A stretch of 64,000 nt of DNA from positions 86,257 through 150,256 of the forward strand of contig CAZUDX010000004.1 in the NCBI GenBank assembly GCA_964618695.1, given 5' to 3'. Numbering within the stretch: position 1 is the first letter of the stretch; each line of letters opens with the position of its first letter. The stretch is from an uncultured Candidatus Bathyarchaeia archaeon. Lineage in GTDB: Archaea > Thermoproteota > Bathyarchaeia > Bathyarchaeales > Bathyarchaeaceae. Both the position numbers and the translations under genes were made by a program. Under the pieces are notes generated by a model. It did no database searches. It had not been told where the DNA came from and saw nothing but the letters and a program-made list of their open reading frames with translations. This document shows positions 1,130-43,966 of the stretch, in pieces.

Positions 1130-3397
1130 TTACTGCAGTTTCCCAAATAGTTTAATCCACTTCTCAGAGATTTTCTTCGCGTCAAACATTGAGGACCTCT
1201 CTATGCAATTCTTCCTCATCTCTTGGGGATAACCTTCCTTCCAAATCCTCGAAGCAAAACTCACCAACTCTTCATCGCTATTTACAAGCCAGCCTGTGAC
1301 GCCGTCTATGACGGATTCGCTGGGTCCCTGCCTGTTGTATGTCAGCACTGGGGTTCCACATGCCATGCTTTCGATAGGTATGTATCCGAATGGTTCATGG
1401 GAAAATGTGAAAAGGACGTAGAGGGCGTTGGAGTAAAGGTTCGCAAGTTCTTTGTTAGAAACTGAGCCTATGAATTCTATGTTTGGGTGTTTGGCGATGC
1501 AAGTAGGTATACCAGATGCCTTGTAGCCAAAGGCTTTTATTTTCACACCTGCGTCGGCTACCTGTTTGATGGCTGCAAACTTGGTTTCTTTATTATAGAC
1601 CCCGAAGTAGCTCAGTACATAATCTTGTGACGGTTCAGAGGTTGTAGGTTTGAAGAGAGTGCGGTCTAACGGGGGAGGAATCACATCTTCAACTTTAACG
1701 TCTAGTTCATTATACATAGAGGCACAAAACTTTGAGTTAGCTATCACTGAATCTGATAGATGGGAGTAGTCATTAACGGTTTTCTTCTCTAAATATCTCA
1801 ATACTGGCGCAACCAAAAGGTAGCTGTACTTGTAACGTGCAGGCATTTCAAGAAGCATGTCGTCAAGAGCTCTAGTTATTGGACCCTGAGCGTAATACAA
1901 GTGGGACTTGACCTTAATGCAAGATGAAGTATTGATCACTATCTCGTTTTCACCAAAATCTTCCAAGTTGACCGTGCTTCTCGATTTGAGTAGTGACTTT
2001 GCCCAAGCTTCAAGGATTGGAAATGACTGTATAATGTTGAAATTCGAACCTAAGCTTATGACTTCGATATCGTTTTTCTTTGCTAACCTCTTAACTTCTT
2101 CGCTGACACTTGGAGAAATGAGCCTAATGTTGTATCCATTTTTCTTTAGTTCCGTAGCTAAAAGAAATGGTGGTCTTGTTGAGCCTGCTGTTGTCATAAG
2201 AGGGTCGGTGATGAAAGTTATGTTCATTTGCTTGACTTCAGTGCGCACTTTTAAGCTAGGCTGTAACGCTTCTAGAATATGCCTAGTCGACTTCTCTATA
2301 GTAAATTCTTTTAGAGCCATCGCTTTGGCGCTTAAACCCATTTTAGCGGTCAGTTGCTCATCTTCTATTAAACGTTTCATGCTTTCCGCAACATCATCTG
2401 GATCATAGGGATTAACATGGAAACCGTTCTCCCCATGTCTGATGAATTCTTTTGTTCCCCCCTGTTTTGACACTATTGATGGCTTCCCAAAAAGTGCAGC
2501 TTCTATGGGAACTAGACCGAAAGGTTCATGCAAAGCTAAATGAACTATGAACTTGCAATTCTTGTAATAGCTTATGAGTTCTTTTTCATCAACGTGAGAC
2601 CGAAAAACCAGATCGTCTAAACCCAAATCACGGGCTGTAGACTGAACCTCCTCCCTTAAGGGGCCATCCCCTATTATAACAAGTTTCACTGCTGCCCTAT
2701 ACTTTGGCGGGAGTTGATGATACGCCTTCAGCAAGTTGAAGTGGTTCTTCATCGGAATCATCGCCCCAATGGCTAGCATGTAATTGTTCGAGTCATTGTC
2801 CACGTCGCTCTGGGTTTTGTGTTCAACCTCTATGCCTGGGTATGCAACCGATATCTTTTCGTCCAAGCCATAGAGTGTTTTGATGACTTGTCTTGTGTAT
2901 TTGCTGTTGGCGATTATCTTTGTGTAACGTCTGGCAGTTATTTTGTCTATGGCGCGAAGAAGATTAATTGAAGAGCCATAGAGTTTATCTGACAGAAATA
3001 CGTCAGTGAAAGTTTTGCCGTAGCATTCTCTGCTGGTAGGTCTGGTTGTGGAGCTTAACTCTTTGGAGGTTATTCCAGATAATTGATTTTCCCATAAGGC
3101 TCGGAGTGGTTCTCCACAATACCAAACAAGTTTGTTTTTAAGAAACATGGTTAGATAATAGGCTAGAAAGGGACCGATGTGATGGTGTATAAGCACTACG
3201 TCGAAAGATTTGAGGTTGTCTATCAGGTTTTTCAGGTTTCGAAAACCTTTGAGAGACGGTGGAAACCCAAAGGGCAAAGTGTTCAACACCATGTTTGAGA
3301 GTGCCCTTTTTTCCCAATCAGGATGTAATGGACCGTTGTAAAAAAGTTCAACATTGAAGCCTAGTTTTTTCAGGTATATGCCGTGGAGTATAGCCAT
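1130..3397 (-). CDS. Tandem GT4-GT4 fusion glycosyltransferase (two complete GT-B modules)
   Basis: 755 aa with two E-x7-E-type signatures: EPFGLVPIEAALFGKPSIVSKQGGTKEFIRHGENGFHV and EPFGYIPIESMACGTPVLTYNRQGPSESVIDGVTGWLV. The second module starts near MNITFITDPL. A conserved GT4 N-terminus (KIAILHHALGRFGGAEK) is in frame upstream of the first ATG, so the true start may be near 3451. Confidence 0.8.
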   Translation of the reverse strand: MAILHGIYLKKLGFNVELFYNGPLHPDWEKRALSNMVLNTLPFGFPPSLKGFRNLKNLIDNLKSFDVVLIHHHIGPFLAYYLTMFLKNKLVWYCGEPLRALWENQLSGITSKELSSTTRPTSRECYGKTFTDVFLSDKLYGSSINLLRAIDKITARRYTKIIANSKYTRQVIKTLYGLDEKISVAYPGIEVEHKTQSDVDNDSNNYMLAIGAMIPMKNHFNLLKAYHQLPPKYRAAVKLVIIGDGPLREEVQSTARDLGLDDLVFRSHVDEKELISYYKNCKFIVHLALHEPFGLVPIEAALFGKPSIVSKQGGTKEFIRHGENGFHVNPYDPDDVAESMKRLIEDEQLTAKMGLSAKAMALKEFTIEKSTRHILEALQPSLKVRTEVKQMNITFITDPLMTTAGSTRPPFLLATELKKNGYNIRLISPSVSEEVKRLAKKNDIEVISLGSNFNIIQSFPILEAWAKSLLKSRSTVNLEDFGENEIVINTSSCIKVKSHLYYAQGPITRALDDMLLEMPARYKYSYLLVAPVLRYLEKKTVNDYSHLSDSVIANSKFCASMYNELDVKVEDVIPPPLDRTLFKPTTSEPSQDYVLSYFGVYNKETKFAAIKQVADAGVKIKAFGYKASGIPTCIAKHPNIEFIGSVSNKELANLYSNALYVLFTFSHEPFGYIPIESMACGTPVLTYNRQGPSESVIDGVTGWLVNSDEELVSFASRIWKEGYPQEMRKNCIERSSMFDAKKISEKWIKLFGKLQ

Positions 3398-3494
3398 TTT
3401 TTCGGCTCCTCCGAACCTGCCTAGGGCGTGATGGAGAATTGCTATCTTAATTCTAAAGATCCTCCCATTGGTTTGAATAACCTAGACTTCTATT

Positions 3495-6400
3495 TTATCT
3501 GAGTACTTTTTGTTTTATGTACTTTCCCCACTGTTTAAGCTTTTTAGATGGGATAATCATTACCGGCACCACAATAATTAGAGTAACCACTGAAATTCGT
3601 ATTCCCAAGTCAGCGTAACTTTGTCCTGTGAAATATATCGTTACGTCGAAATCACCTGTCTTGTTTATGTAGTAACCGTTAACCAAAGAATACATTGGAA
3701 TCGGAGATATCTCTTCACCGTCTACGTAAGCTTTCCACCTTGGGTGGTAGGACTCTGAGAAGATCAAAAGAAACGGTTCATTACTGTTTTCAACGTGAGC
3801 CTTATACTTAGTTGGGTTTATCTTTTCATAGCTAACTTTTGGACCGGGCTTTGCCTCAAACAAATCATCCAAGAAACCGAAATCTCCCTCATCGTTTAGT
3901 GTCATCACCATGTCACTGAAATATGCTTCCCCTGTGGCGCTGATTGTTACGGTTTGTTCGCCAGAGTGAAGATAAAACGGTCCAGCCTCGTAATGTATAA
4001 TTTTGGCATCGGGACTGTTGCAGGAAATATCAATTGTTTCGTCGTTCACCTTCAGGGTTACAGTGCCAAATTGTGGACCAAATGCGAGCCGGAAGTCAGC
4101 CCTGTAAAATCCATCCTCTGGAATCAAAATGCTTCTTGAAACAGTAGGTTCTGCATAAGCTTTGAACTCCCATATGCTTACTAGGTCATATAAAGCTGTA
4201 ACAGAGGTGATGTAAAGTCTCAATTTTGTAGTTTTCACGGGTTCTGAGAACATGTGCACTCGGTCAAGAATGACGTTTCCGGTCACGTTAACTTGGTTAA
4301 CCCAATCAACTCCGTTCCATGTTTGTATTGTGTAGTTTTCTGCGTATGCATCTTCAAAAAGTATGTGTGCTCCGGTAAGTTCCTGCGGGGTTTCCCACTC
4401 AATTTGCAGCCATTGTGGCATCGATTCATGAGGTTTAGAAGCCCACCTCGTTTCCAAGTTTTGGTCGTTGGCTCTATTAGCGTCTAAGCCAATATTATCC
4501 CACACTCCAACCGAACTAGCAGAAATGGTGCCGTTGGGTGAAACGTTCATTCCCAACTCCTCTGCGTGTAGTCCAAAATCGCCTAAATCAACAAGTTGTT
4601 CCCCGTTTTCAAGCGAGTAAATGATCAGTTGGTCAAACTCTATTCTTTCCGAGGCACGTATCTCTATTAGGTGATCGCTGGCATCAAGATAAACAGGTCC
4701 AGCCTCGTACCACTCTGCCTCTGCATTGGAGTTGAGGTGTCGTACAGTGACGTTCGTGTTATTTATCCGCAACTGTGGAATACCTTGGTTTAGACCTTTA
4801 ACCAAGCGAATAGCAAACATGTATTGATCTTCTCGAGGAATTGAGAGCCTAGTTGAAAGCCACGGTATCGTATAAGCTTCGAATTCCCATACGCTTACCA
4901 AACCATATGCTGGAGCAGACGTCACGTAGAGCCGTAACTTCTTTGTTACCACAGATTCTGGGAACATATGCACTCGGTCAATCATAACGTTTCCTGTTAC
5001 GTTAACTTGATTAACCCATTCTTCACCGTTCCATGTCTGTATTGTGTAGTTTTCTGCGTACGCGTCTTCAAAAAGTATGTGTGCTCCGGTAAGTTCCTGC
5101 GGGGTTTCCCACTCAATTTGCAGCCACTGCGGCATCTCATAAGGTGTAGAAGCCCACCTCGTATTTTTGCGCCCGTCATTGGCTCCATCCGCCTCCAAGC
5201 TAATTGTGCCCCACACTCCGACCGAGCTGGCAGAAGCATTGCCTTCTGGCGAGATGTTTGCAGTTGGGCTTATGTTGTGAAAAACATAATCTTCAAAGGA
5301 TATTAAATTGGTATACCAATTTTCAGGAGGATCGAATGTGAAAGTGTTTTCAGCCTCCAAAACATAGATAATTCTGCCTGAGAATCTTTGGAGGGTTTCG
5401 ATTAAATCGTTCATCCTTGATTGGAAGAGGTTTGGTTTTACTATGGCAATGGTATCTATATCGTTGTAGCCTGTGCCGTCGTTTGCTAATGTGATTGTGT
5501 GTTCGCCTTTTTCCAAGTCCAGAGAGTTTATATTTACCCACATTAGCCTCGACCAAAAACGCGATCGTGGTTTAATTTCTCCAATAGGAGTCCCATCTAT
5601 CAGAACGGTTAGGTTTCCTCTGTTATCCACAAACGCAATCCTCAACCAGACGTCATAGTTTCCATTCGAATCAGTTTTGAATGGTATTTTTATGCTGGTA
5701 TTTCCTGAGGTTGTAAGAGTGTCTCCGCCCCACACAAAGCCTCCGACAGACCTCCAAGACGTAGCGGTAACCCAATTTCTAGAATAATTCTGAGATGAAA
5801 CACCATAATTTGCAGCTATTATGAAATTCGCTTCGTCTCTGAGAGATAACATCGTTGCATCCACTAAGTCAGTGTTAACCAAAATCAGCGCGTCTGAGTT
5901 ACTAAACAGGTCGGCGGAAAAGGAAGTTTCATCTGTTTGATGCGCAAAAATCAATCCTGTTTCATTAAGGTTGAATGTGTCGATCTTACATAATGCTGAG
6001 AAACTCTGTAAACCTCCCATGACATAAGCGTATTCGCCGGTCGCAAAAACCCCGGGGGTGTAATATTTGTTTTCAAGAATAATGGAGCTCTGGTTATAGA
6101 CTACGTCATAGCCTTCCTGTTGCAAGAAGAAGTTTCGTGTGTTATTTGACAGATATTCTGGTAAGACAACATATTTGTAATTAAACGGTCCAATCATTTC
6201 TAACATGTTTTCAGTTAACTCTTTGCGTGCCAGACGAAAACGCATGTAGTCAACGTAGTGGCGAGCTGGGGTGCTCCATCCTCCATCTTGAAGAACAGGT
6301 CTACCGTGAAGAAACGAGCTGTCGTAACCTATGTCATGCCCCCAGCCTAAGCTGGTTTTCATACCACTGAAAGCAAAATCAGACTCTTGTATAGACTTGT

Positions 6401-39511: not shown

Positions 39512-39916
39512 CTAGGTTCTTGGATTTCTTCCCCTAGCCGTAGCTGCTCCCACTATTACTCCAATTATCACGATTGCTCCAATTATGACTAAGACGAAGG
39601 GGAGGATTGATCGAAAAGTAATGACGCCAGTTGTTACAAGATAGGACATGAAGCCCACTAATATCAGAATTATACCGCCGATTAACGGACCTAAAATGCC
39701 GTACTCTCGCTTCTCATATTTTTCTTGCTGCTCTCCCTTCTCCATTTTCTCTTCTTTTTCCTGTTTTTCATGTTTCTCCTGTTTCTCAGCCTTCTCACTT
39801 CTATAATGAACCGTTGGCGTTGGTCCTTGCGCTAAAGCGGCGCCGCATTGGGGACAAAAAGTCATTTCTTCTCTGGTTTTAAAGCCACATTTCTGGCAAT
39901 AGGGCAATAAATTCAC
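39512..39916 (-). CDS. Zinc-ribbon membrane protein with EK-rich repeat linker
   Basis: CQKCG...CPQCG, then EKAEKQEKHEKQEKEEKMEKGEQQEKYEK, then 2 TM. Confidence 0.5.
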   Translation of the reverse strand: MNLLPYCQKCGFKTREEMTFCPQCGAALAQGPTPTVHYRSEKAEKQEKHEKQEKEEKMEKGEQQEKYEKREYGILGPLIGGIILILVGFMSYLVTTGVITFRSILPFVLVIIGAIVIIGVIVGAATARGRNPRT

Positions 39917-40028: not shown

Positions 40029-40517
40029 GTGGATTATTTGAACGATAGCACGAGGGCTCCTCGCAGATATGGAGAGGGATTAATTACCGCCATTTCTGTC
40101 GGATTCGTCTTCCTTCTTGTGGGGGCCATCTTTATCATCACCCCTAACCTATTTGACGGAATTGTTGATTTCTTTAAAGACTTCACGATAGTTGATGTTC
40201 CAAACTCTAACTGGGCACTTCCTGCACCGCAAATTCCGGGCAACCATATAGTAGTTTATGAGGCTGTAATGCAGTTCAGTTTCGCTATAGGACTATTTCA
40301 ACTCGTCATCCTAGCACTGAGATTTTTTGCCCCGTCACCATGGGGAAAAAGATCAGAGACTGTTGGAAACTTGGTTTTCTGGCTGGGCACAGGTTTTCTA
40401 ATTCAGACCTTCCTTCTTGAAACTACACAATGGTTCGTATTCTGTTCCACGATAATAATACTAATCGGTGTTTCTCTGATAGCAAGAGCAATGGTTATGG
40501 CAGCTTCGCGTATCTAA
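40029..40517 (+). CDS. Integral membrane protein (4 TM)
   Basis: 162 aa, hydrophobic helices. Confidence 0.45.
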   Translation: MDYLNDSTRAPRRYGEGLITAISVGFVFLLVGAIFIITPNLFDGIVDFFKDFTIVDVPNSNWALPAPQIPGNHIVVYEAVMQFSFAIGLFQLVILALRFFAPSPWGKRSETVGNLVFWLGTGFLIQTFLLETTQWFVFCSTIIILIGVSLIARAMVMAASRI

Positions 40518-40531
40518 CTAACAGCACGCGC

Positions 40532-41878
40532 CTATTGAGTTCCCGCACATAAGTATTGATTCTTCTCGAGTTCCAGCGGGCACCCTCCGCCACAGATTTG
40601 CAGTTGCGGGCACTCTTTGCATTTCGGTTCCACATATTCTCTCTTTCTCAACTTCACTGCAAGCGGGTGATTCCAGATTTTTTGCCACTCTTCCTTTAGT
40701 ATGTTGCCAAGACTCTCAAAGTAGCTTTGGCACGGATAGACATCACCGTTGGGTCCAACACACATGTTAATCATCGCTGCTGTGCAAGATTTGACGCCTA
40801 AACCCAATTTCACAGGGTCAAAACGACAATATTGGGTTGGAGTGTACCAAAGAAATTTTAGTCCCAGCTGACTCGCTTTGTCGTGGACTTTAGGCAACAA
40901 TTCTTTCAGGGTTTCAAGGGGCAAAGCGAATTCTTTGCTTATTTCGTTTGCTTTTCCTGAGTAAATTAAACTGTTACATCCAAAGGCGGCTACGCCCAGC
41001 TCTTTCAAATAGTCTATGGTTTCCAGAAAATGTGGGGCATTGTATCTGCTGAGAGTAGTGTTTGTGGTAGCGTAAATCTGCGTTGGAATCACGTTTTTGA
41101 TTCCAGCCACAGTTTCTTTCCAACTTCCTTTTGTCGCCGTCATTCGGTCATGAATTTCTGGCTTATGCGACTCAAGGGTCACTTGGATGAAGTCCAATCC
41201 AGTTTTTTCAAGGATTTCGACGTAGTTTTTGTCCTTTAGTTTTCTGCCGTTACTGATAAGACCCGTAACTAATCCTTTGTTTTGCGCGTAAAGTAGAAGC
41301 TCCGGCAGGTCTTCCCTGAGTGTTGGTTCGCCTCCAGTGAAGGTTAATATAAAAACGCCAATTTGGTGAAGGCGGTCAATAACTTGTTTCCATTGTTCTG
41401 TGGAGAGTTCCGAGGTTTCATGGGGTCCGCCAGCGTAGCAGTGTTCACAATTGTTTTGGCATCTGAAGGTTAGCGCCAAGTCCACACGCAACGGTGCCGA
41501 AAGCTGTTGGGTGAAGGGTTCTATTTTTTCCAAGTCGAGAAAAGATATGGGACAAATTTCTTCAGTCTGCGCCAAGGTGCTGATGGTGTAGATTAGCTTC
41601 TCATAATCAGTTCTCGCTGTCTTCTTGTCCACTCGGTACATGCTCTTAATCTTTGCAACGGCTTCATCTGTCGTCATGCCCTGCATAAAATAGAAAGCAT
41701 GAACAGTAGCTGTCTCGTTTAAGTAAAGAACAGTGTTGGCGTTTATCACCAAAAGTCCTTGACCGTCGGGTTCCACACGAAGCTGAAGAGCTAAACCCTT
41801 GAAATCGCCCTTCCCCCGATATGTGTAACGTCCACGGGGAGCCTTGGATTTATGCAAAAATTTGCGAACAAAACTCAT
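40532..41878 (-). CDS. Radical SAM / SPASM-domain enzyme with N-terminal PqqD-like (RRE) domain; peptide/protein-modifying maturase candidate
   Basis: 448 aa. LTFRCQNNCEHCYAG (CxxxCxxC) and TFTGGEPTL. The C-terminal Cys-rich SPASM-type region is CTAAMINMCVGPNGDVYPCQ...CKECPQLQICGGGCP. The N-terminal ~100 aa (LLVINANTVLYLNETATVHAFYFMQGMTTDEAVAKIKSMYRVDKKTARTDYEKLIYTI) look PqqD-like. Confidence 0.8.
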   Translation of the reverse strand: MSFVRKFLHKSKAPRGRYTYRGKGDFKGLALQLRVEPDGQGLLVINANTVLYLNETATVHAFYFMQGMTTDEAVAKIKSMYRVDKKTARTDYEKLIYTISTLAQTEEICPISFLDLEKIEPFTQQLSAPLRVDLALTFRCQNNCEHCYAGGPHETSELSTEQWKQVIDRLHQIGVFILTFTGGEPTLREDLPELLLYAQNKGLVTGLISNGRKLKDKNYVEILEKTGLDFIQVTLESHKPEIHDRMTATKGSWKETVAGIKNVIPTQIYATTNTTLSRYNAPHFLETIDYLKELGVAAFGCNSLIYSGKANEISKEFALPLETLKELLPKVHDKASQLGLKFLWYTPTQYCRFDPVKLGLGVKSCTAAMINMCVGPNGDVYPCQSYFESLGNILKEEWQKIWNHPLAVKLRKREYVEPKCKECPQLQICGGGCPLELEKNQYLCAGTQ

Positions 41879-41888
41879 GATTACACCT

Positions 41889-43523
41889 TCACCTCTTTAT
41901 TCCCACTCCTCCTCCTGCACAGGCGCAAGCACACGATACACAGGCGCATGCACACGCGCAGGCAGCACAAGCACATACACAACTGGACCTGTGGTGAGCC
42001 GGTTTTCTAGAAGATTTTGAAGTTGGCATGGGAAGTATTGCGTTGGCGAACTTTTCGATATTAGTCACTATATTGTTTGAGGTGTTTTCTACAGCCGTTG
42101 CGATGTTGTTGGCGAAGTCTGCGCCAGGAATTGTTGGAGGTTTCGTCGCTTTGCTGGGTGTTTCAATATTTGGTTTGTATGTGGGTTTAGGGTGATAGTG
42201 CCTGTAGCTGTACCAGTACCAAAACCAGAAGGGACTCGGCTCAAAGGCTGTGTTGCGGAAAGCTGTTTGGGTACGTGATTTAACGTTCGGGTCGAGTAAA
42301 AGCCACAGTAATTGCTCATCATAGGCTTTCGATGTTAACTCTGGCGTGCCCGCCTGTTCCACCTGTTTCCAGGCCTTTGCCACGATTTTCCGGTAATATT
42401 CTATGGTGTCGCGCCGGAGGTAACCCAGCAACTTTTTTTCAACAGTTCGTCTGAGAAGCATGATTGTTTGAGCAAGTTTCTCTTCGTCAAGGGTTCCGTC
42501 TTCTCTTATGGCGTTGAGGAAGTCGATTTCATAGTATCGAAGAGGATTTTTTCGAGTTCCAGTCTTGTCCTGAAAAGGTTTCATAATTCTAATTTTCAGC
42601 GAAGGGGTCGTGGACTCGACCCAAACTGCCCTCTTCTTCAAAAGACTGTACACAATTTCCGTGACTATTTGAGTTGGCTTTAGCCTGAGGAGGTAAGAAG
42701 CCTCCACAGCGGTTAGACCGCGCCTAATTCCAAGGGTTTCAACCCCGATTGTAGGCTTCTTATACGGTCTCTTGCGAATATTGATGACAACTGCGACAAT
42801 AACAACAACCGAAATTCCCAAAAGCAAAAACGCAGGCCAATAATTCTGAAAGAAATCAATTAAATCAGATTTTGTCTCATAAACCTGAACGTACTCTTTA
42901 GGAAAAGAGACTCCAAAATTGTATTTCTGACCCGGCGCCAGATTTTTTCTTTCCCAGTAAACAGATAACCTTCCATTTTCGGTTAGCACGTTGTCCCAGT
43001 CCACCGATGTTTTCACCAAGTCTTCTGTGACTCCAGACGGTAAAACAATCTGCACTCGCAGGTCGTATACGCTTGCTTCATCCCACCATGTTGGAATGAA
43101 CTGCATGCCAACGTTACCCGGGTTTTCAGTGTCTTCAAATATCATGCCAGCAACGTTTGTGGTGAGGTTGAATCTGACTGTTTGTCCAGCCATTAAGGGC
43201 GTGTTGAGGTTGACGCGCACCCTGTAATCGCTTCCAGAACTCGCATCAGAGGCGTCAAGCATGTAGCCTTGTTGGTCTATGGCTGTTCCTATGGTGAAGT
43301 CGCGTTTGGGTTGACCAACATATACAAAATTTATGTTAGGACCAGAATCGAGGGTTATGCTGATGTCATAGAAGAGGTCTATAGTGCCGTCTTCAGGGTT
43401 TATCCAAATTTTCACCCACTCGTGGTCCAGATGATATGTTCTCTGGGCGTTCACCGTGCCTGTAAACATCGCCAAGATTAATGTGACCGATAATGTGGCG
43501 AGCAGAAAACGGGTCTTCACCAT
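41889..43523 (-). CDS. DUF2207-like membrane protein with C-terminal (Cys-Ala)n tail
   Basis: 544 aa. Signal peptide (..FTGTVNA/QRTY), a ~200-aa extracytoplasmic beta-rich domain, a TM (WPAFLLLGISVVVIVAVVINI) and a cytoplasmic helical domain. The terminal sequence is SSCVCACAACACACACVSCACACAGGGVGIKR. GAGGTGA lies upstream of the next gene, 10 nt away. Confidence 0.6.
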   Translation of the reverse strand: MVKTRFLLATLSVTLILAMFTGTVNAQRTYHLDHEWVKIWINPEDGTIDLFYDISITLDSGPNINFVYVGQPKRDFTIGTAIDQQGYMLDASDASSGSDYRVRVNLNTPLMAGQTVRFNLTTNVAGMIFEDTENPGNVGMQFIPTWWDEASVYDLRVQIVLPSGVTEDLVKTSVDWDNVLTENGRLSVYWERKNLAPGQKYNFGVSFPKEYVQVYETKSDLIDFFQNYWPAFLLLGISVVVIVAVVINIRKRPYKKPTIGVETLGIRRGLTAVEASYLLRLKPTQIVTEIVYSLLKKRAVWVESTTPSLKIRIMKPFQDKTGTRKNPLRYYEIDFLNAIREDGTLDEEKLAQTIMLLRRTVEKKLLGYLRRDTIEYYRKIVAKAWKQVEQAGTPELTSKAYDEQLLWLLLDPNVKSRTQTAFRNTAFEPSPFWFWYWYSYRHYHPKPTYKPNIETPSKATKPPTIPGADFANNIATAVENTSNNIVTNIEKFANAILPMPTSKSSRKPAHHRSSCVCACAACACACACVSCACACAGGGVGIKR

Positions 43524-43966
43524 TTCGGTTCCTCAACTATTTCGAATGTTTGTTTGCAGTAGGGGCATGTTGCATATGGTACGCCGTCCACGATTTTGAT
43601 CTGGTCAGAGTTTACCGAAGCCGAGCAGTTGGGACATTTGAGGGCGACGGCGCTCATTTGCCCTGAAAATTCCAACTGTTGGATAATTGTTTTCGGCTTT
43701 CTGGTTATGTAGTAGGCAATTACGATGCCGACAACAAACAGCATAGCAGCAGTAATCAGTCGGGTCGTCTTTAGTTCAACTGAAATCGCTGCCCCAGTGG
43801 ACCAAGCGAATATGATACCGAAAAAAAAGAGAACCGCAACTATAATTGTGCCTAGCGCCGTTTTGAGATTCACGGATACATTTGAAATAACTTCAAGTAA
43901 TTTAATCTTACCACACGACAAGCAGCATAACCGAGATAATGTTAAGCGAAGTTTCAGAATGGGCAT
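43517..43966 (-). CDS. Two-TM membrane protein with C-terminal zinc ribbon
   Basis: 149 aa. CPNC...CPYC. Overlaps the downstream gene start by 7 nt and the nrdJ stop by 13 nt. Confidence 0.5.
   Translation of the reverse strand: MPILKLRLTLSRLCCLSCGKIKLLEVISNVSVNLKTALGTIIVAVLFFFGIIFAWSTGAAISVELKTTRLITAAMLFVVGIVIAYYITRKPKTIIQQLEFSGQMSAVALKCPNCSASVNSDQIKIVDGVPYATCPYCKQTFEIVEEPKW

Follow-up and report, generated by a model that had tools for sequence, protein, structure and literature searches.

The window, a 64,000-nucleotide stretch of DNA from an uncultured Bathyarchaeia archaeon (contig CAZUDX010000004.1), encodes on its minus strand a single-pass membrane protein of 544 residues whose C-terminus alternates cysteine chiefly with alanine before a run of three glycines, and directly downstream a radical S-adenosylmethionine (SAM)/SPASM enzyme; a third, small gene lies upstream of the pair in the same cassette. 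At the level of the peptide, purifying selection on the Cys-Ala tail is extreme, and the tailed gene and the enzyme gene are adjacent, co-occurring, lost together and co-diverging across archaea and bacteria. On balance we consider the tail to be the substrate of the neighbouring enzyme in cis, probably for the installation of thioether cross-links. The gene and its tail are laid out in the window as follows.

41889..43523, minus strand: gene of the tailed protein, an open reading frame (ORF) of 544 amino acids whose product ends CVCACAACACACACVSCACACAGGGVGIKR.
41916..41981, minus strand: Cys-Ala core of the tail, C515-A536, as translated from the minus-strand ORF.
41907..41915, minus strand: GGG, G537-G539, directly after the Cys-Ala core.
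41892..41906, minus strand: the last five residues, V-G-I-K-R, after GGG.
41889..41891, minus strand: stop codon of the tailed gene.

The C-terminus of the protein reads ...HHRSS-CVCACAACACACACVSCACACA-GGG-VGIKR, with the first tail cysteine, C515, encoded by codon 41979..41981 and the core divided by the two-residue linkers AA and VS into the blocks CVCAC, CACACAC and CACACA. All ten cysteines of the protein (10/10) are found inside the tail, within 21 residues (515-535) and always spaced as CxC or CxxC. The gene is present as a single copy in the genome (2.0 Mb, 95% complete, 16 contigs), and no other long alternating-Cys run was detected among its six-frame open segments of 60 amino acids or more (9,473 in all): the tail matches CxCxC three times, every other segment has at most one short match, and the pattern thus greatly exceeds chance expectation. 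The minus-strand tail codons quoted in an earlier note on this DNA match the window exactly, and the mixed codon choice described there is confirmed. The same note let the protein end at GGG, where five further residues (VGIKR) are present, and its range of 41889-41990 does cover the tail but also takes in the stop codon and the three codons R-S-S that precede the first cysteine. Most relatives terminate at GGGVG, GGGAG or GGGR, and the extra IKR after GGGVG is peculiar to the sub-lineage of the window (the relative P0002, at 88% identity, has LKR and ends GGGVGLKR). This extension overlaps the Shine-Dalgarno-like GAGGTGA of the radical SAM gene (window 41878..41906), the ribosome-binding site of the enzyme (GAGGTGA/AGGTG) being superimposed on the last tail codons.

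A tail of the same length is carried by all of the closest homologues (120/120, at 71-100% identity and mostly Bathyarchaeota metagenome proteins), with the consensus CVCACA[AST]CAC[AV]CACVSCACACA[GS]GGVG. A search of 1.84 billion cluster representatives (at 50% identity) returned 595 relatives at E<=1e-3, and a Cys-Ala tail ends nearly all full-length relatives among the 150 matches listed, down to ~27% identity, its core being kept in both archaea and bacteria. The archaeal form of the tail has 7-10 Cys and a V[SG] linker, the bacterial form is CACACACAGCACACAGGGR, with a GGGR terminus in 72 of the 150 matches listed, and a third form, again among the matches listed, terminates in CACACACVSCACACACAGGGGCT. 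Up to GGG, the bacterial tail CACACACAGCACACAGGG is written wholly in the letters C, A and G, and software that guesses sequence type could take fragments of it for DNA.

In an alignment of 88 sequences the invariant columns include C526, C531, C533, A534, C535, A536 and G538. Across 82 loci, sampled from Bathyarchaeia, other Thermoproteota, Methanomicrobia/Methanocella, Chloroflexota, Zixibacteria, Cloacimonadota and others, a 17-codon core of the tail contains six Cys, four Ala and two Gly invariant columns, and non-synonymous change is limited to five columns; the GG is likewise invariant across loci, with either G or S as the first residue of GGG. Third codon positions of the same core differ in 62% of pairs, versus 7% and 10% at positions 1 and 2, and synonymous differences are seen in 53% of codon pairs. 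In the 81 loci with a parsable tail, Cys is encoded 367 times by TGT and 351 times by TGC, and all four Ala codons are in use. Differences in tail length amount to whole Cys-Ala units and are confined to the first blocks (block 1 of bacteria has 3-5 Cys-Ala units, the additional archaeal block 0, 2 or 3 Cys), while the last block, CACACA followed by GG, shows no variation apart from two frameshifted tails, in L036 and P0268. The former is a pseudogene or an assembly error, since the enzyme gene of this locus, from a long-read metagenome-assembled genome (MAG), is also fragmented. In the tail DNA of the window, Tandem Repeats Finder detected no period-2 (dinucleotide) array; its one report was a weak, degenerate pattern of period 12 (70% matches, 15% indels, score 49). 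The earlier note had read the tail as selected at the level of the peptide and not as a slipped (CA)n microsatellite, and had proposed to score Cys conservation against synonymous variation in aligned homologues; the fixed Cys columns, together with saturated synonymous sites, bear out that reading, and, the two frameshifted tails excepted, the homologues show neither pure (TG/CA)n DNA of variable length and shifting frame nor an absence of the tail in close relatives.

The second gene of the pair is described by the following features.

40532..41878, minus strand: radical SAM/SPASM enzyme gene, 448 amino acids (Pfam Radical_SAM 83 bits, SPASM 42 bits).
41438..41461, minus strand: CxxxCxxC motif, C140, C144 and C147, invariant in 31 orthologues and conserved in 69.
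40580..40828, minus strand: SPASM region with conserved C351, C365, C373, C383, C420, C423, C429 and C433.
41567..41833, minus strand: PqqD-like domain, residues ~16-104, a recognition element of peptides that are made by the ribosome and modified after translation (RiPP recognition element, RRE), from a sub-threshold Pfam PqqD match, an AlphaFold2 model and Foldseek.

The enzyme gene starts 10 nt past the stop of the tailed gene and its product is, judged from its sequence, a complete RRE-radical SAM-SPASM maturase. The SPASM cysteines follow the pattern C351/C365/C373/C383 plus C420-x2-C423-x5-C429-x3-C433 and would bind two auxiliary [4Fe-4S] clusters. The AlphaFold2 model (pLDDT, the score of the predicted local distance difference test, 84.9; predicted template-modelling score, pTM, 0.87) features four strands and three helices at residues 16-104, and the Pfam PqqD score is 17.2 bits in the window enzyme and 36.6 bits in the bacterial orthologue of locus L083, relative to a gathering score of 23.4. 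Among solved structures, both sequence and fold lie nearest to SkfB, SuiB (in forms with and without its peptide), PqqE and CteB; for the 448-residue query, Foldseek aligns 436-467 columns with SuiB and CteB, i.e. near full length. All four of these enzymes are peptide cross-linkers.

No NCBIfam cut-off is reached by any of the three cassette proteins, archaeal or bacterial. Assignment of the enzyme to the CrpC family TIGR04463 was rejected at 37.9 bits against a cut-off of 525 (G000:C4:127241-127747), with other radical SAM proteins of the genome scoring higher, and assignment to the StsB family NF045574 was rejected at 76.2 bits against a cut-off of 625, with eight other radical SAM genes of the genome scoring higher. 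Anaerolineae cassettes feature in addition a second, shorter paralogue 1-3 kb downstream, composed of a PqqD and a partial radical SAM domain with no SPASM match, in L083 (9088-10329), L070, L072, L074, L076, L077 and L078; none is present in the archaeal window.

The association between tail and enzyme is maintained over large phylogenetic distances. In 74 of the 82 loci the enzyme's specific orthologue (E values across loci mostly 1e-110 to 1e-275) lies directly downstream of the tailed gene on the same strand, and the other eight comprise one adjacent upstream, one within 3 kb, three at a contig edge and three elsewhere in the genome, the three distant enzymes matching at E 1e-130 to 1e-147 versus ~1e-29 for generic radical SAM proteins. 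In 121 genomes drawn evenly from the class of the window, both genes occur in 27, the tailed gene alone in 0, the enzyme alone in 1 and neither in 93, counts that are descriptive and not a test. The enzyme-alone genome holds a mere fragment near a contig start, and in the 27 two-gene genomes the pair shares a contig, its coordinates adjoining in every genome in which both genes are matched over their full length. The tailed and radical SAM genes are both broken in G011 (G011:C55:49920-51872) and in L036 (5854-8152), by truncation, internal stops or a frameshifted tail, which would point to a joint decay of the pair or else to an error of long-read assembly.

Within the genus of the window, the two other species (L090, L091) are devoid of the three-gene cassette. 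The DNA of these sister species can be matched to the window only as far as the 3' end of the ribonucleotide reductase gene (window ~43977), and the slot is filled by one unrelated zinc-ribbon gene of 196-199 amino acids, which in the first of them (L090; G093:C1:1719000-1725500, 3115-3836) is followed by a homologue of the window ORF 40029..40517. Because the whole block is missing from the sister species, the three genes of 40532..43966 behave as one gain-or-loss unit. The enzyme tree divides, with 100/99 support, into bacteria and archaea: every partner in the bacterial clade carries an AG-linker tail, and every partner in the archaeal clade a V[SG]-linker tail. Three Bathyarchaeia-like cassettes (L021, L025 and L042, at 36-55% identity to the window protein) reside in MAGs labelled Candidatus Acidoferrum, Methanocella and Nanoarchaeia, and could be the result of mis-binning or horizontal transfer.

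For the tailed protein, an AlphaFold2 model (mean pLDDT 83.4) and the hydropathy profile indicate an N-terminal signal or anchor at residues 1-26, a beta-sandwich ectodomain (residues 29-208, window 42900..43440), a single transmembrane (TM) helix at 221-249 that is followed by RKRPYKKP, and at 270-434 a helical domain on the cytoplasmic side. The positive-inside rule would put the tail in the cytoplasm. It is flexible and unmodelled, as pLDDT falls to <50 at residues 516-535, and a low-complexity, low-confidence linker separates it from a further helical segment:

42036..42125, minus strand: helical segment, residues 467-496, from the alignment conservation profile (AlphaFold2 helices 467-484 and 489-496).

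This segment is moderately conserved, lies 20-45 residues upstream of the first cysteine and might represent a leader-like recognition element for the RRE of the enzyme.

The tailed protein has no Pfam or NCBIfam match (Pfam: 0 families at E<=0.01), and the tail marks a large family without a curated model. In Foldseek searches both the overall plan and the ectodomain resemble ribophorin I/OST1 of the eukaryotic oligosaccharyltransferase, and the ectodomain also resembles the N-domain of M1 aminopeptidases; the fold likeness of the ectodomain is uninformative about the tail. The likeness to ribophorin I/OST1 extends to a shared plan of beta-sandwich, single TM helix and cytosolic part, at a Foldseek E of ~1e-11 and a template-modelling score (TM-score) of only ~0.28.

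The earlier note tentatively linked Gly- and Cys-rich tails to DUF2207-family proteins. One NCBI record does name a homologue DUF2207, PF09972 and PF20990 give weak matches in 3/88 (best E 5.5e-5) and 4/88 (best E 1.2e-4) family members, and one bacterial member has a sub-threshold TIGR04222 match. The window protein itself is without a Pfam match and the DUF2207 and TIGR04222 scores in the family stay below cut-offs; its membership in DUF2207 is thus unsupported, and given such weak and rare matches the protein is DUF2207-like at best. The likeness, judged from the AlphaFold2 model and hydropathy of the window protein alone, would lie in the general plan of the DUF2207 (PF09972/PF20990) and TIGR04222 membrane proteins, where an extracytoplasmic domain at the N-terminus precedes a TM helix and a cytoplasmic region, and the C-terminal end is Gly-rich and of low complexity. 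In the literature searched, which covers DUF2207 papers at the level of title and abstract, DUF2207 is never tied to a radical SAM partner or a Cys-Ala tail.

We propose a model where the tailed protein is held in the membrane with its beta-sandwich domain outside and its C-terminal ~290 residues, including the flexible tail, in the cytoplasm. The co-translated enzyme would dock via its N-terminal PqqD-like domain, probably on the helical segment upstream of the tail, and would modify the tail by means of 5'-deoxyadenosyl radicals. Cys-S to carbon thioethers (sactionine or ranthionine) between the Cys-Ala blocks would be the favoured chemistry, with the invariant glycines possibly serving as acceptors as well, and the outcome would be a tail fixed as a rigid cross-linked hairpin or meander, so that it would act as a RiPP-like 'core peptide' on a full-length membrane protein. 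The invariant two-residue [AV][GS] linkers and the alternation of Cys with small residues would permit a tight hairpin or three-strand meander with all thiols on one face.

We infer the substrate relationship, the docking site at helices 467-496 and the chemistry, and the case for the tail as substrate is built on the architecture and relatives of the enzyme, its RRE, the predicted cytoplasmic location and flexibility of the tail, the co-inheritance of the two genes and the lack of space for a separate precursor: with cassette junctions of -7 nt and +10 nt, and with the next gene 14 nt past the stop of the enzyme, there is no room for an additional ORF. No protease or transporter is conserved in the cassette across the compared loci. 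To the wider proposal that the enzyme covalently rebuilds the tail into a multiply cross-linked structure, one that possibly binds metal or is redox-active, that neither leader cleavage nor export takes place and that the modification is widespread and undescribed in anaerobes, we assign an even chance.

Several points weigh against modification of the tail by its neighbour. The PqqD match of the window enzyme lies below the Pfam threshold (17.2 versus 23.4 bits), and the putative docking helix shows no more than moderate conservation, its archaeal form being unlike the bacterial one. The Cys-x-Cys spacing is tight for the ring sizes of sactipeptides and ranthipeptides, unless the links run between blocks. 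The statistical weight of the co-occurrence counts is overstated, because the genomes are related, and conservation alone is no proof of modification, because CxC repeats are classic metal-thiolate ligands.

The last of these points leads to a reading in which the tail binds metal or an Fe-S cluster and the enzyme is functionally linked to it without any covalent change to the tail; as a variant, the enzyme might build or insert the cluster, or might draw on the tail as donor of a cluster or of sulfur. We regard this as unlikely overall, though it is the main rival. The concentration of all cysteines of the protein in the tail is consistent with it, the [AV][GS] linkers would fit tight turns that place Cys opposite Cys, and the authors of the CrpA study suspect a metal-related role for their own modified protein (PMC13692751). 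Simple metal binding, however, does not call for an RRE-radical SAM-SPASM enzyme with peptide cross-linkers among its relatives, the invariance of Ala and Gly exceeds the usual needs of metal ligation, and no metal transporter or chaperone is conserved nearby, the flanks differing among the compared loci. The two readings are also compatible, in that a cross-linked tail could still bind metal. The earlier note had called the tail metallothionein-like or cross-link-ready; the second description is the better supported by context, because a dedicated RRE-radical SAM-SPASM enzyme is encoded next door, and the first stays as a rival. The resemblance to metallothioneins lies in the clustered CxC/CxxC motifs, the difference in that metallothioneins are small soluble Cys-rich proteins that bind metal-thiolate clusters, whereas here the cysteines form the tail of a 544-residue single-pass membrane protein with ~2% Cys.

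The third cassette gene offers another potential target:

43517..43966, minus strand: small membrane protein, two TM helices and a C-terminal zinc ribbon, third cassette gene.

The end of this gene, with its stop, shares 7 nt (ATGGTGA) with the start of the tailed gene, and its annotated start (43966) is probably too far upstream, since homologues begin at about residue 32. The C-terminus of the small protein, EEPKW (window 43517..43531), is the same in nearly all archaeal and bacterial orthologues, and the ORF is conserved upstream of the pair in most Bathyarchaeia and bacterial loci. We think it quite improbable that this protein, through its EEPKW end, or else an unannotated small peptide, is the true substrate and that the role of the tail is unrelated. 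The translational coupling of the small ORF, its conservation from Bathyarchaeia to Chloroflexota and the invariant EEPKW would all fit a substrate, as would the Lys-Trp links formed by SuiB-type relatives. Nine loci that keep the tailed gene and the enzyme nevertheless yielded no small ORF next to the two (L045, L046, L047, L049, L051, L056, L057, L058 and L080, comprising a Thermoproteota group, L047, L051 and a Methanomicrobia genome), and this weakens the case for the small protein as the conserved substrate. Moreover, the deepest split of the enzyme tree is tracked by tail type and not by the small protein, and a small peptide would find no intergenic room for its precursor in the cassette. 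We keep the tail as the preferred substrate and treat the small zinc-ribbon protein as an accessory cassette member, perhaps a membrane tether or chaperone.

Less probable still is that the hydrophobic Cys/Ala/Val tail represents a membrane-inserted or S-acylated anchor and that the enzyme acts elsewhere. The 19-residue Kyte-Doolittle mean does reach 1.7-2.25 in windows starting at 513-524, values like those of weak TM segments, but membrane anchors tolerate wide variation and the Cys, Ala and Gly of the tail are invariant, the bacterial tail, with 16-19 residues plus GGGR, is rather short to form a TM helix, and no acyltransferase is conserved nearby. Finally, a neutral, functionless in-frame microsatellite derived from (TG/CA)n, a reading to which the whole-unit variation of the first blocks and the frameshifted tails of L036 and P0268 might lend some colour, is refuted and deserves practically no credence, because the tail length is constant in 120 homologues, the peptide is fixed across two domains of life over saturated synonymous sites, lengths change by whole units with the last block CACACA-GG constant, no period-2 array is present and the enzyme gene of frameshifted L036 is itself fragmented.

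Farther downstream, window 39512..39916 (minus strand) encodes a protein of 134 amino acids whose N-terminus has a zinc ribbon, which contains an E/K-rich repeat (EKQEKHEKQEKEEK...) and whose C-terminal part is hydrophobic; it has a weak DUF2207_C match of 20 bits and is not conserved beside the cassette in other loci. Scans for sigma-70 promoters and intrinsic terminators gave counts at background, with models that are uninformative for an archaeon.

To our knowledge, cross-linking by radical SAM enzymes is known almost only from short, exported natural-product peptides, with few cases of whole proteins (QhpC and, recently, CrpA). In the present case, hundreds of uncultured anaerobes from both domains, ranging from Bathyarchaeia and further archaea to Chloroflexota and several more bacterial phyla, combine an unusually constrained motif of 20-30 residues on a membrane protein with a dedicated maturase. 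If the tail is indeed modified, radical SAM enzymology would gain a new class of substrate and probably a new topology of cross-links, a first approach to the function of a large DUF2207-like membrane-protein family would become available, and the way would be open to a simple co-expression test. Filters based on overall cysteine content miss systems such as Cys-Ala tails.

In the literature searched, no description was found of a Cys-Ala-tailed protein together with a radical SAM system. A proteomics paper on Methanococcus voltae and pyrite (PMC9431491) proved unrelated to the tailed-protein family. In the CrpA/CrpB/CrpC system (TIGR04463) of the same organism, CrpC installs thioethers on the whole Cys-rich archaeal protein CrpA, with ranthionine links shown by mass spectrometry and a function that is possibly metal-related (PMC13692751, 2026). 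The window cassette shares with it an archaeal RRE-radical SAM-SPASM enzyme and, as the proposed target in place of a short peptide, a whole Cys-rich protein encoded beside it, but CrpA is a soluble 28.8-kDa protein built from ten copies of a 17-residue repeat with C-x-x-Q/D motifs, whereas the window protein is a membrane protein with a (Cys-Ala)n tail. The survey that accompanied the Crp work retained proteins over 250 amino acids with at least 5% Cys (PMC13692751), a filter that would have missed the window protein at ~2% Cys.

The motif itself has its closest counterpart in StsA. StsB of Streptomyces sparsogenes joins Cys2/4/6 of a CxCxC motif to Gly11/13/15 through three Cys-S to Gly-C-alpha bonds, giving a hairpin (PMC10288494), and the sactipeptide system StsA/StsB/StsC as well as the related BlaA/BlaB (PMC10288494) have in common with the window cassette a CxCxC core followed by glycines, which in StsA act as acceptors, and a radical SAM/SPASM enzyme with an RRE. 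StsA, however, is a short leader-core peptide whose GxGxG acceptors lie beyond a loop, at core residues eleven to fifteen, whereas in the window tail GGG directly follows the last Cys-Ala and 7-10 Cys are distributed over two or three blocks.

QhpD, which cross-links QhpC of quinohemoprotein amine dehydrogenase (PMC7876137), provides a case where a radical SAM enzyme makes several intra-chain Cys cross-links and the modified subunit stays in a functional protein; QhpC differs in being a small soluble periplasmic subunit with Cys-Asp/Glu links and no repeat tail, and QhpD is unrelated to the window enzyme at the family level. Among Haft-type radical SAM/SPASM systems, the ACGX-repeat system (TIGR04340) and the His-Xaa-Ser system (HxsB/HxsC) likewise pair a dedicated radical SAM maturase with a short, strictly repeated target motif, but their targets are other proteins with other motifs, and the window enzyme reaches only 76 bits for ACGX (cut-off 400) and 67 for HxsC (cut-off 268). 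In the sactisynthase and ranthisynthase class at large the precursor is short, cleaved and exported, whereas the only candidate here is the C-terminus of a 544-residue membrane protein. Overall, the system resembles Crp and Qhp protein modification and its motif recalls StsA, with membership in the CrpC and StsB families rejected on score, and it would be set apart from known systems by a membrane-protein tail as substrate, by the (Cys-Ala)n-GGG repeat and by an apparent independence of cleavage and export machinery.

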